Source: Eledone cirrhosa
Lineage: Eukaryota
NCBI GenBank assembly: GCA_964016885.1
Contig: OZ024740.1
Span: forward strand, 252,278,001 to 252,342,000
Length of the DNA stretch: 64,000 nt
Reading direction: 5' to 3'
Shown: positions 2,731 through 4,865 of the stretch, in pieces
Position numbering within the stretch: the first letter of the stretch is position 1
Layout: every line of letters begins with the position of its first letter
Notes under the pieces: model-generated
What the model saw: the letters and a program-made list of their open reading frames with translations, nothing else
Told to the model about the DNA's origin: nothing
The model's database searches: none
Translations under genes and position numbers: made by a program

Positions 2731-2760
<30 letters not shown>
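2731..2760. repeat. (TA)15 microsatellite separating the PLE remnant and the retrozyme-like element
   Basis: Perfect TA run. Confidence 0.98.
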
Positions 2761-2764
<4 letters not shown>

Positions 2765-2999
2765 CAAATAACGAAACGAAATTAAATTTCGTTTCGTTTG
2801 TAACTCACTTTTGTATGACTGACGCTTAAACAATTATGTTAAAAATGTACATCCACATATGTATACTGAAATACTAGTATGCATATGAATACACACACGT
2901 ATACATATGTAGATGTACCGAGTTTTTCACTGGTCACTTTACTGTGAGTGTCCAGCTATTCTGTATGTAAACACAGACAAACCGGTTTTTAGAGTCATA
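2758..2999. repeat. Direct repeat copy 1 (242 bp)
   Basis: Near-identical to 3222-3465; visible differences are TATGTT/TAAGTT, ACACAG/ACACACAG and TTTTTAG/TTTTGAG. Confidence 0.97.
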
Positions 3000-3050
3000 C
3001 TGGTTTTTGAGGAAACACCTTTCCTCTATTCTCCAGAAAGCCAGACAAGG

Positions 3051-3095
3051 AATATTGAACTAGTTTCGATGTTGTTACATCTCATCAGCAATATT
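3051..3095 (-). ncRNA. Type I hammerhead ribozyme (minimal metazoan type, palindromic short stem III)
   Basis: Minus strand reads AAUAUUG-CUGAUGA-GAUGU(AACA)ACAUC-GAAA-CUAG-UU^CAAUAUU: 7-bp stem I, invariant CUGAUGA and GAAA core, 5-bp stem II, palindromic ACUAGU stem III, and a GUU cleavage triplet. Predicted cut between 3058 and 3057. Confidence 0.92.
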
Positions 3096-3221
3096 TACCT
3101 ATCTTCCGGCCTTTCTAGAGAATCGTAAAAGCACATATCGTTATATGCTTTTTCTATGAAAATTAGTAGTGGGCAGACTAATTTGCATAGAGCGTGAGTA
3201 CGTACCGGTTCAACGGAGACG

Positions 3222-3465
3222 ATAAAAACAAATAACGAAACGAAATTAAATTTCGTTTCGTTTGTAACTCACTTTTGTATGACTGACGCTTAAACAATTA
3301 AGTTAAAAATGTACATCCACATATGTATACTGAAATACTAGTATGCATATGAATACACACACGTATACATATGTAGATGTACCGAGTTTTTCACTGGTCA
3401 CTTTACTGTGAGTGTCCAGCTATTCTGTATGTAAACACACAGACAAACCGGTTTTGAGAGTCATA
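3222..3465. repeat. Direct repeat copy 2 (244 bp)
   Basis: Near-identical to 2758-2999. Confidence 0.97.
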
Positions 3466-3517
3466 TATATATAATAGAGAAACGAAAATCAATTACTGAA
3501 TTTCAGAGACTTATCAA

Positions 3518-4584: not shown

Positions 4585-4796
4585 ATGATTTCTGATTTAG
4601 GCACAAGACCACCAATTTTTAGGGGAGGGTAAAGTTGTTTAAATTGACCCCAGTACATTACTGGTGCTTTATTTTATCGAACCCGTCGGGATGAAAGGCA
4701 AAGCTAACATTGGTGGGATATGAACTCAAAACGTAAAGGGCCGTAAATCTATGTTGCAAAGCATGGTGTCTGACGCTCTAACGATACTGCCAATCC
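4585..4796 (-). mobile_element. tRNA-derived SINE, best-preserved copy of the family in this window
   Basis: Minus strand begins TGGCAGTATCGTTAGAGCGTCA (A-box-like), then GAGTTCATATCCC (B-box-like), then TTTGCCTTTCATCCCGACGGGTTCGATAAAATAAAGCACCAGT, resembling the Nin/Deu-type central domain. Two further copies occur in the window. Confidence 0.8.
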
Positions 4797-4865
4797 AAGA
4801 ATTAATAATATAGACACACACTCACATGAATAAAATAGTAAGTTAACTCGGAGTCTTAGTTATAC

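Follow-up and report, generated by a model that had tools for sequence, protein, structure and literature searches.

Metazoan non-LTR retrozymes, as described for coral, mussel and axolotl in the available parts of the reports (PMC7229834; bioRxiv 10.64898/2026.07.22.740005), are short non-coding tandem units, each with a type I hammerhead and a GC content below 50%, which have a highly paired predicted circle, form arrays from dimers to tens of units and share their genomes with Penelope-like elements (PLEs). Their link to PLEs was derived from co-occurrence and from similarity to PLE pseudo-LTRs (pLTRs), and which enzyme moves animal retrozymes, and from what template, is stated in these reports as open. 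PLE insertions are partial tandems, truncated at the 5' end, that include an inverted copy; a tail of 30-40 nt is often present at one end only (PMC8557442, PMC3846280). [quoted passage not shown] Two further systems are related in form: the non-autonomous Chlamys elements, e.g., MRC1, which are PLE derivatives in multicopy head-to-tail insertions (PMC8557442), and newt satellite 2, a tandem hammerhead repeat with a weak stem III for which an snRNA-type internal promoter was reported (as cited in PMC2220036). Among cephalopods, 235 hammerhead hits were listed for the giant squid (PMC6962438).

The repeat found in the 64,000-nt stretch of DNA analyzed here (hereafter, the window) shares all of the above features with metazoan non-LTR retrozymes. 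Its 466-nt unit is longer than the tested invertebrate circles (170-400 nt) and lies within the 51-972 nt of the vertebrate survey, and it is described here from DNA sequence, whereas expression and cleavage were shown for the published families. Fixed double 3' ends, inverted arms pairing two sites (A and B, Table 1) and (TA)n targeting are found only here, as far as the available text of those papers extends, and no tail or inverted junctions were described for any retrozyme in the published literature searched, although supplements may differ. With the PLEs that carry a tail and an inverted pLTR, including PAc (PMC8557442, PMC3846280, PMC11167929), the family has in common 5' truncation, partial tandems, a head-to-head copy, a tail at one end, AT-rich or microsatellite targets and two internal start sites. 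Unlike them, it has no ORF, its tail measures 67-72 instead of 30-40 nt, its hammerhead is canonical rather than minimal, and the repeat unit is the whole element; Naiad-type PLEs are described as being without canonical hammerheads (PMC8557442). The MRC1-type elements are algal and resemble their autonomous partner at the 3' end, whereas no such partner was found here in the 49 loci examined. Newt satellite 2 is an amphibian repeat of ~330 nt, and its likeness to the present unit extends to the weak stem III and, with a conserved octamer here, to a putative promoter.

The repeat unit and its family in the genome

The first-pass annotation had described the element as about one and a half copies of a non-coding 464-bp unit with ~242 bp of redundancy, one hammerhead per unit and TA runs at both ends, and the sequence bore this out. 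Window 2758-2999 (242 nt) recurs at 3222-3465 (244 nt), the two copies being separated in the alignment by 2 substitutions and a CA indel of 2 nt, the best period of the repeat is 464, and the longest stop-free stretch in the six frames of 2758-3465 is 71 aa, at a GC content of 34%. The length of 464 nt is correct for this copy, whereas the usual unit of the family has 466 nt: the CA tract is CA x3 in 342 of 397 scored units and CA x2 in 55, so that the shorter unit of the window reflects a recurrent CA loss. The element is flanked by three mutually related short interspersed repeats (window ~200-300, 1545-1720 and 4625-4800), which may be SINE-like, and the remaining 59 kb of the window (4949-64000) are a single 9-bp satellite (AACACCACC, ~6,600 copies). 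Neighboring repeats have a possibly cephalopod-like character.

Table 1. Features of the window copy. Unit positions are counted from window 2760; the RNA sense is the minus strand, read from high to low position.
Feature	Window position	Strand	Evidence or remark
(TA)n target run, left flank	2731..2759		TA x15 at 2731-2760
Full repeat unit, unit 1-464 (family mode 466)	2760..3223	-	repeat alignment, DNA search
Site A, fixed RNA-3' end, unit 1-5, putative reverse-transcription start, joined to (TA)n	2758..2764	-	exact junctions genome-wide
Perfect hairpin immediately 5' (in RNA) of site A, within the tail	2770..2798	-	sequence and predicted fold
Tail, 67-72 nt separating sites A and B	2760..2826	-	at only one end of two-armed insertions
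Site B, second fixed RNA-3' end, unit 67-74, peaks at 68 and 73	2826..2833	-	unit-68 junctions
Long hairpin 5' (in RNA) of site B	2847..2918	-	predicted fold
Type I hammerhead ribozyme motif with its core at 3088-3057; cut predicted at 3058/3057	3035..3106	-	Rfam profile and sequence
Octamer ATGCAAAT, putative snRNA-type internal promoter element	3181..3188	-	conservation
Partial second copy, unit 1-240, which stops at the variable RNA-5' end of the insertion	3224..3465	-	repeat alignment
(TA)5 right flank, initial bases common to the element	3464..3473		sequence

The hammerhead was recognized both by an Rfam match and by reading its core. Hammerhead_HH9 matches with an E value of 2.3e-7 and 36.5 bits, below its gathering score of 52, and a scan of the whole window at gathering thresholds gave zero matches; the other sub-threshold Rfam matches were rejected as hairpin look-alikes with scores far below their gathering scores. 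The core is composed of CUGAUGA (3088-3082), a 5-bp stem II (3081-3068), GAAA (3067-3064), then CUAG, and GUU, after which the cut is predicted exactly where the first-pass annotation had placed it. Stem III is one pair closed by a palindromic CUAG loop, and a weak stem III with such a loop is known as the dimer-type architecture (PMC4209133), so the ribozyme is likely of that type. In the 487 units sampled, the core hardly varies, either GUU or GUC serves as the triplet, and the commonest variant (158 units, 51 loci) has a stem II A-U pair swapped for U-A. When the sister family described below was included, 92% of cells in the helices were able to pair and 6 of 16 pairs changed on both sides, in a set of only 8 related sequences; their covariation score exceeded that of 500 of 500 shuffles, while the pair count was reached by 70 of 500. 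The monomer, folded as a circle, has a predicted energy of -154.6 kcal/mol with 66% of nucleotides paired (z ~ -10 vs 40 shuffles), and the hairpin at 2770-2798 varies little among insertions (1.2%). The octamer, a possible snRNA-type internal promoter motif, is intact in 97 of 105 insertions and kept in the sister family. It is reminiscent of the promoter reported for newt satellite 2 and is a possible promoter element of the unit.

The genome searched comprises 3.0 Gb in 1,796 contigs. A DNA search with the unit gave 127 matches among the 40 candidates scored out of 96, the full-length ones being 97-100% identical. Exact patterns, each with a reversed-pattern control of 0 and each a lower bound, were found 965 times for one ribozyme variant, 1,970 times for TA junctions at unit 1 (site A) and 1,042 times for the unit-68 junction (site B), which places the number of insertions at ~2,000 or more and substantiates the earlier proposal of a multicopy, dispersed, tandem and TA-targeted family. 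Its subfamilies have from ~88% to 99% identity to the window unit and differ mutually by up to ~12%. By these sequence data it is a young, abundant non-LTR retrozyme family, new as a family though of a kind already known; no description of it was found in the published literature searched, and paper supplements, Dfam or Repbase may list it or its relatives.

Arrays hold 1 to 71 units with one variable end, and their arms reach 32.8 kb; no LTR pair surrounds a unique middle. An LTR retrozyme or TRIM, with a type III hammerhead in two LTRs and both ends fixed, was rejected in view of the type I motif and the variable end. In long arrays, where neighboring units mostly differ at 2-6 positions, variant matrices revealed irregular duplicated blocks, a sign of later DNA-level growth of some arrays; array length is therefore no measure of the rounds of reverse transcription. 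The same matrices disposed of higher-order trimer arrays, which the spacing had suggested as a sign of multimeric circles.

Several side observations concern the distribution of the family. Two identical insertions 17.7 kb apart (G000:C1:55,970,351 and 55,988,021) represent a local segmental duplication, and one was dropped from the counts. Runs X4 and X6, labeled as other organisms, contain a single unit variant over 2762-3462 and no TA-junction contigs, and one contig among them goes back by 466; what these two runs hold may be RNA, contamination or DNA of low copy number. All runs searched consist of contigs of unrecorded kind and were kept out of the evidence on expression. PLE loci (L168:7900-9901; L169:117-173 and 3144-3455; L152:2892-3085; L177:4172-4416) also contain a sister family of hammerhead tandems with a period of ~483 nt and 64-67% identity to the unit, which shares the octamer and the TA targets and seems to have two fixed 3' ends as well.

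Insertion ends of the family and of local PLEs

The fetched loci were merged into 124 groups and parsed; after removal of the segmental duplicate 123 remained, of which 14 were incomplete at the border of a locus or at an N gap (with one insertion represented twice, by its two ends) and 109 had both ends visible. This sample corresponds to ~6% of insertions, mainly from contig C1. RNA 3' ends fall at two fixed sites ~70 nt apart, A (unit 1-5) and B (67-74); B has further support from run X1, whose contigs show loose ends in TA at 3291. Two head-to-head arms pairing A with B make up 78 of the 109 insertions, 7 of which rest on a very short second arm detected by its motif. A+A was never seen (0/109) and B+B twice (one of the two having been fetched because it looked like B+B), whereas ~19 and ~21, respectively, would be expected under independence. 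Single arms account for another 23 insertions (17 A and 6 B), and 6 have another end. As many loci had been picked by a junction, they were split by the way of picking, into groups that overlap: the end opposite a chosen A junction was B in 46 of 69 insertions and A in 0, that opposite a chosen B junction was A in 29 of 41 and B in 2, and 33 insertions picked without a junction pattern included 23 A+B and no A+A or B+B.

A TA-rich flank was present at 183 of 196 A/B ends; the targets are (TA)n, a sequence in which a target-site duplication is unreadable. The window copy is a one-armed outcome, which starts at A, runs for 1.5 units and rejoins TA with its RNA-5' end at unit 240; site B serves as an end in other copies, not in this one. 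Such single A arms are only 17 of 109, most insertions being two inverted arms, so the 1.5-unit form is not typical of the family. Of the circularly permuted, variable endpoints that had been anticipated, only the RNA-5' end proved to vary, whereas the RNA-3' end is fixed at A or B, and random circular permutation of both ends is thereby ruled out. In 185 arms, the RNA-5' ends scatter across the unit (chi-square p 0.028, owing to an excess at 30-87 and at the BLAST boundary 464); the cut site has 6 of them where 3.4 would be expected (p 0.13), which is no excess. Where the two arms meet, 48 of 74 junctions overlap by at least 1 base, a raw count before any chance control that is suggestive of microhomology between arms. 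Taken together, the pairing of A with B and the tail at one end only are the PLE tail signature.

PLEs of the same genome were then compared with the family. Among 10,597 GIY-YIG candidates, 150 were scored and 49 loci examined; these contain several PLE families with ORFs carrying reverse transcriptase together with a GIY-YIG domain at the C terminus. A CxxxxCxxC motif, which is a mark of Neptune/Nematis elements when placed before GIY-YIG (PMC8557442), was found there in 5 of 6 aligned proteins, and by this motif and the C-terminal GIY-YIG domain the local PLEs are Neptune-type. They end in TA, with two 3' ends ~40-65 nt apart (64 nt in one family). All ten head-to-head PLE insertions inspected by eye in 4 families (L139, L147, L163, L164, L169, L170, L172, L174 and two in L175) have one tailed and one tailless end, all ending in TA.

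BLAST and a motif scan of the 49 loci revealed no PLE whose terminal repeat is homologous to the unit. In none of the 123 parsed insertions (0/123) does the unit directly follow an RT-GIY-YIG ORF, which, for these insertions, supports the earlier view that the unit is not an ordinary pLTR attached to a PLE ORF. Two retrozyme insertions adjoin a Neptune-type PLE of one family, whose ORF ends in KYGPRLNTSP, while the other chimeric joints are with a different TA-targeting element. In L238:2950-5390 and L239:3817-4065, retrozyme arms are joined to a 5'-truncated Neptune-type PLE, by template mixing or by later nested insertion. Naming the partner PLE from chimeric insertions was abandoned, as six odd-ended insertions fit later insertion into the TA flank with deletion. 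The further TA-targeting element is abundant, has tailed and tailless ends ~80 nt apart and head-to-head arms (L161:500-810; L233:3020-3135; L045:4715-4825; L198:740-855), and is probably mobilized by a PLE as well. Neptune-type copies with long open frames lie at L160:1775-5062 (+), with 1,096 codons, and L158:4309-7122 (-), with 938 codons, and the 3' repeat of some local PLE families contains a degenerate hammerhead-like core. Long open frames of the local Neptune-type families were located at G000:C1:83.81 Mb and C1:145.87 Mb.

Proposed mechanism and its alternatives

On the evidence of the junctions, it is very probable that the family is mobilized by a PLE. Some observations fit this less well: the tail exceeds the 30-40 nt of PLEs, though one local family has 64 nt, the two B+B insertions break the pairing rule, and the 49 GIY-YIG loci examined contain no PLE terminal repeat homologous to the unit. 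In the mechanism that we propose, tandem units would be transcribed, cut by paired hammerheads and ligated into monomer circles, and the PLE protein, as its biochemistry suggests, would cut both strands of a (TA)n run. One DNA end would prime at site A and the other at site B, ~70 nt apart, leaving the end pattern that is observed; each cDNA would then extend over a variable length, through the ribozyme sites and often for several rounds. The two cDNAs would be joined head to head, the arrangement seen in the insertions, often via a few common bases, and DNA-level duplication, whose traces are visible, later enlarged some arrays. If a PLE is indeed responsible, a circular template is quite likely, and we consider the whole reading, that a Neptune-type PLE enzyme copies the retrozyme in trans from a probably 466-nt circular RNA with its ends fixed in TA runs, to be likely too. 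A more specific version, in which a dimeric PLE enzyme loads one 466-nt circle, cuts both strands of the TA run, primes at A and B of the same circle and has its two rolling-circle cDNAs joined head to head, is proposed tentatively.

The evidence on the template comes from comparing arms and units. In 61 insertions, the two arms differ by 0.60%, vs a median of 4.8% to other insertions; the nearest other insertion is 0.57% from an arm, as close as its own partner, which is strictly nearest in 20 of 61. In 44 well-covered insertions the arms differ by no more than 2.4% (cross pairs, median 5.3%), and for the 20 insertions with arms within 0.3%, only 1.6% of cross pairs are equally close. Subfamilies, each with nearly identical arms, thus do not mix within one event. 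Of 53 insertions, 14 carry rare alleles that are fixed throughout both arms, in each unit (25 alleles, vs 187 found in single units and 41 partial). Together with the haplotype data given below, they match a passage through a monomer in each generation, which favors the circle without proving it. In the other insertions where they occur, most of these rare alleles are fixed as well, so that they may be lineage markers of homogeneous source arrays; a parent-daughter test covering 20 of the 25 alleles found no parent unit.

The strongest competitor is PLE-driven insertion from a linear, uncleaved multimeric array transcript, for which the ribozyme would be incidental to mobility and the circle unnecessary. 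The 1.5-unit structure, which the first-pass annotation had read as a sign of a circle, does not speak against it, as a PLE enzyme starting inside an uncleaved tandem transcript leaves the same structure; that copy alone is thus no proof of a circle. The ribozyme cut site is crossed by 145 of 185 arms, and two or more are crossed by 71, which fits a linear template equally well: in the in vitro work, as far as its available text shows, the enzyme used mainly linear RNA that had not been processed, the ribozyme site was not the end of any read, and insertion persisted when the ribozyme was mutated (PMC11167929), so that read-through does not require a circle. Arrays of up to 71 units are possible sources, and of the 973 differences counted between adjacent units, 212 set one common allele of the family against another. 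However, most long arrays are heterogeneous, whereas the units within a young insertion are identical and have a haplotype of their own: 15 of 50 long insertions are near-homogeneous, and these hold 14 haplotypes. Within-array variants common to different insertions show no excess (17 pairs vs 72 under a resampling null that is biased high), the 5' ends do not pile up at a start or at the cut site, and the ribozyme core and helices are kept across subfamilies and in the 65%-identical sister family. We therefore regard a linear template as unlikely.

It is far less likely still that the copies are 5'-truncated ends (pLTRs) of an unsampled autonomous PLE. Their ends, target and inversions are the same as in local PLEs, two of them adjoin a Neptune-type PLE of one family, and Xenopus retrozymes are related to pLTRs in the available text of bioRxiv 10.64898/2026.07.22.740005. 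Yet the arms run into further units rather than into an ORF, 39 flanks beyond non-A/B ends have no common upstream sequence such as a PLE 3' UTR would give, and both PLE joints are inverted or follow a partial unit, which fits later nested insertion with deletion.

Spread of a satellite by DNA processes alone (extrachromosomal DNA circles or unequal exchange), with the ribozyme as a relic, would account for the block duplications within long arrays, but leaves the strand-polar fixed ends, the A+B pairing, the variable opposite ends and the PLE-identical end pattern unexplained and is highly improbable. Least probable of all is an inverted arm made by fold-back self-priming on an antisense template, as put forward for rotifer Penelope elements (PMC3846280): head-to-head inversions are the form that it sought to explain and the unit is rich in predicted hairpins, but only 3 of 74 junctions have inner arm ends that are 5 nt or less apart, the median distance being 101 nt; the joints are thus not palindromic fold-backs, and both outer ends are fixed, TA-joined and of different type.

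Implications for retrozymes and Penelope-like elements

The junction data link a retrozyme with the insertion pathway of PLEs by evidence more direct than co-occurrence, and they display the PLE end signature on thousands of short, young and easily parsed copies. The family supplies precise start-site predictions, a target sequence and, as candidate partners, proteins with long open frames, all from the same genome, which makes both questions stated as open, the enzyme and template of animal retrozymes and the origin of tandem and inverted PLE insertions, directly testable in vitro. The junction test can be applied to any other retrozyme family, and a precise test of the circle model is now set up. 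If priming at A and B of the same circle by a dimeric enzyme is true, the near-strict pairing of A with B across thousands of young copies would constitute a genomic record of that step for retrozymes and PLEs generally.
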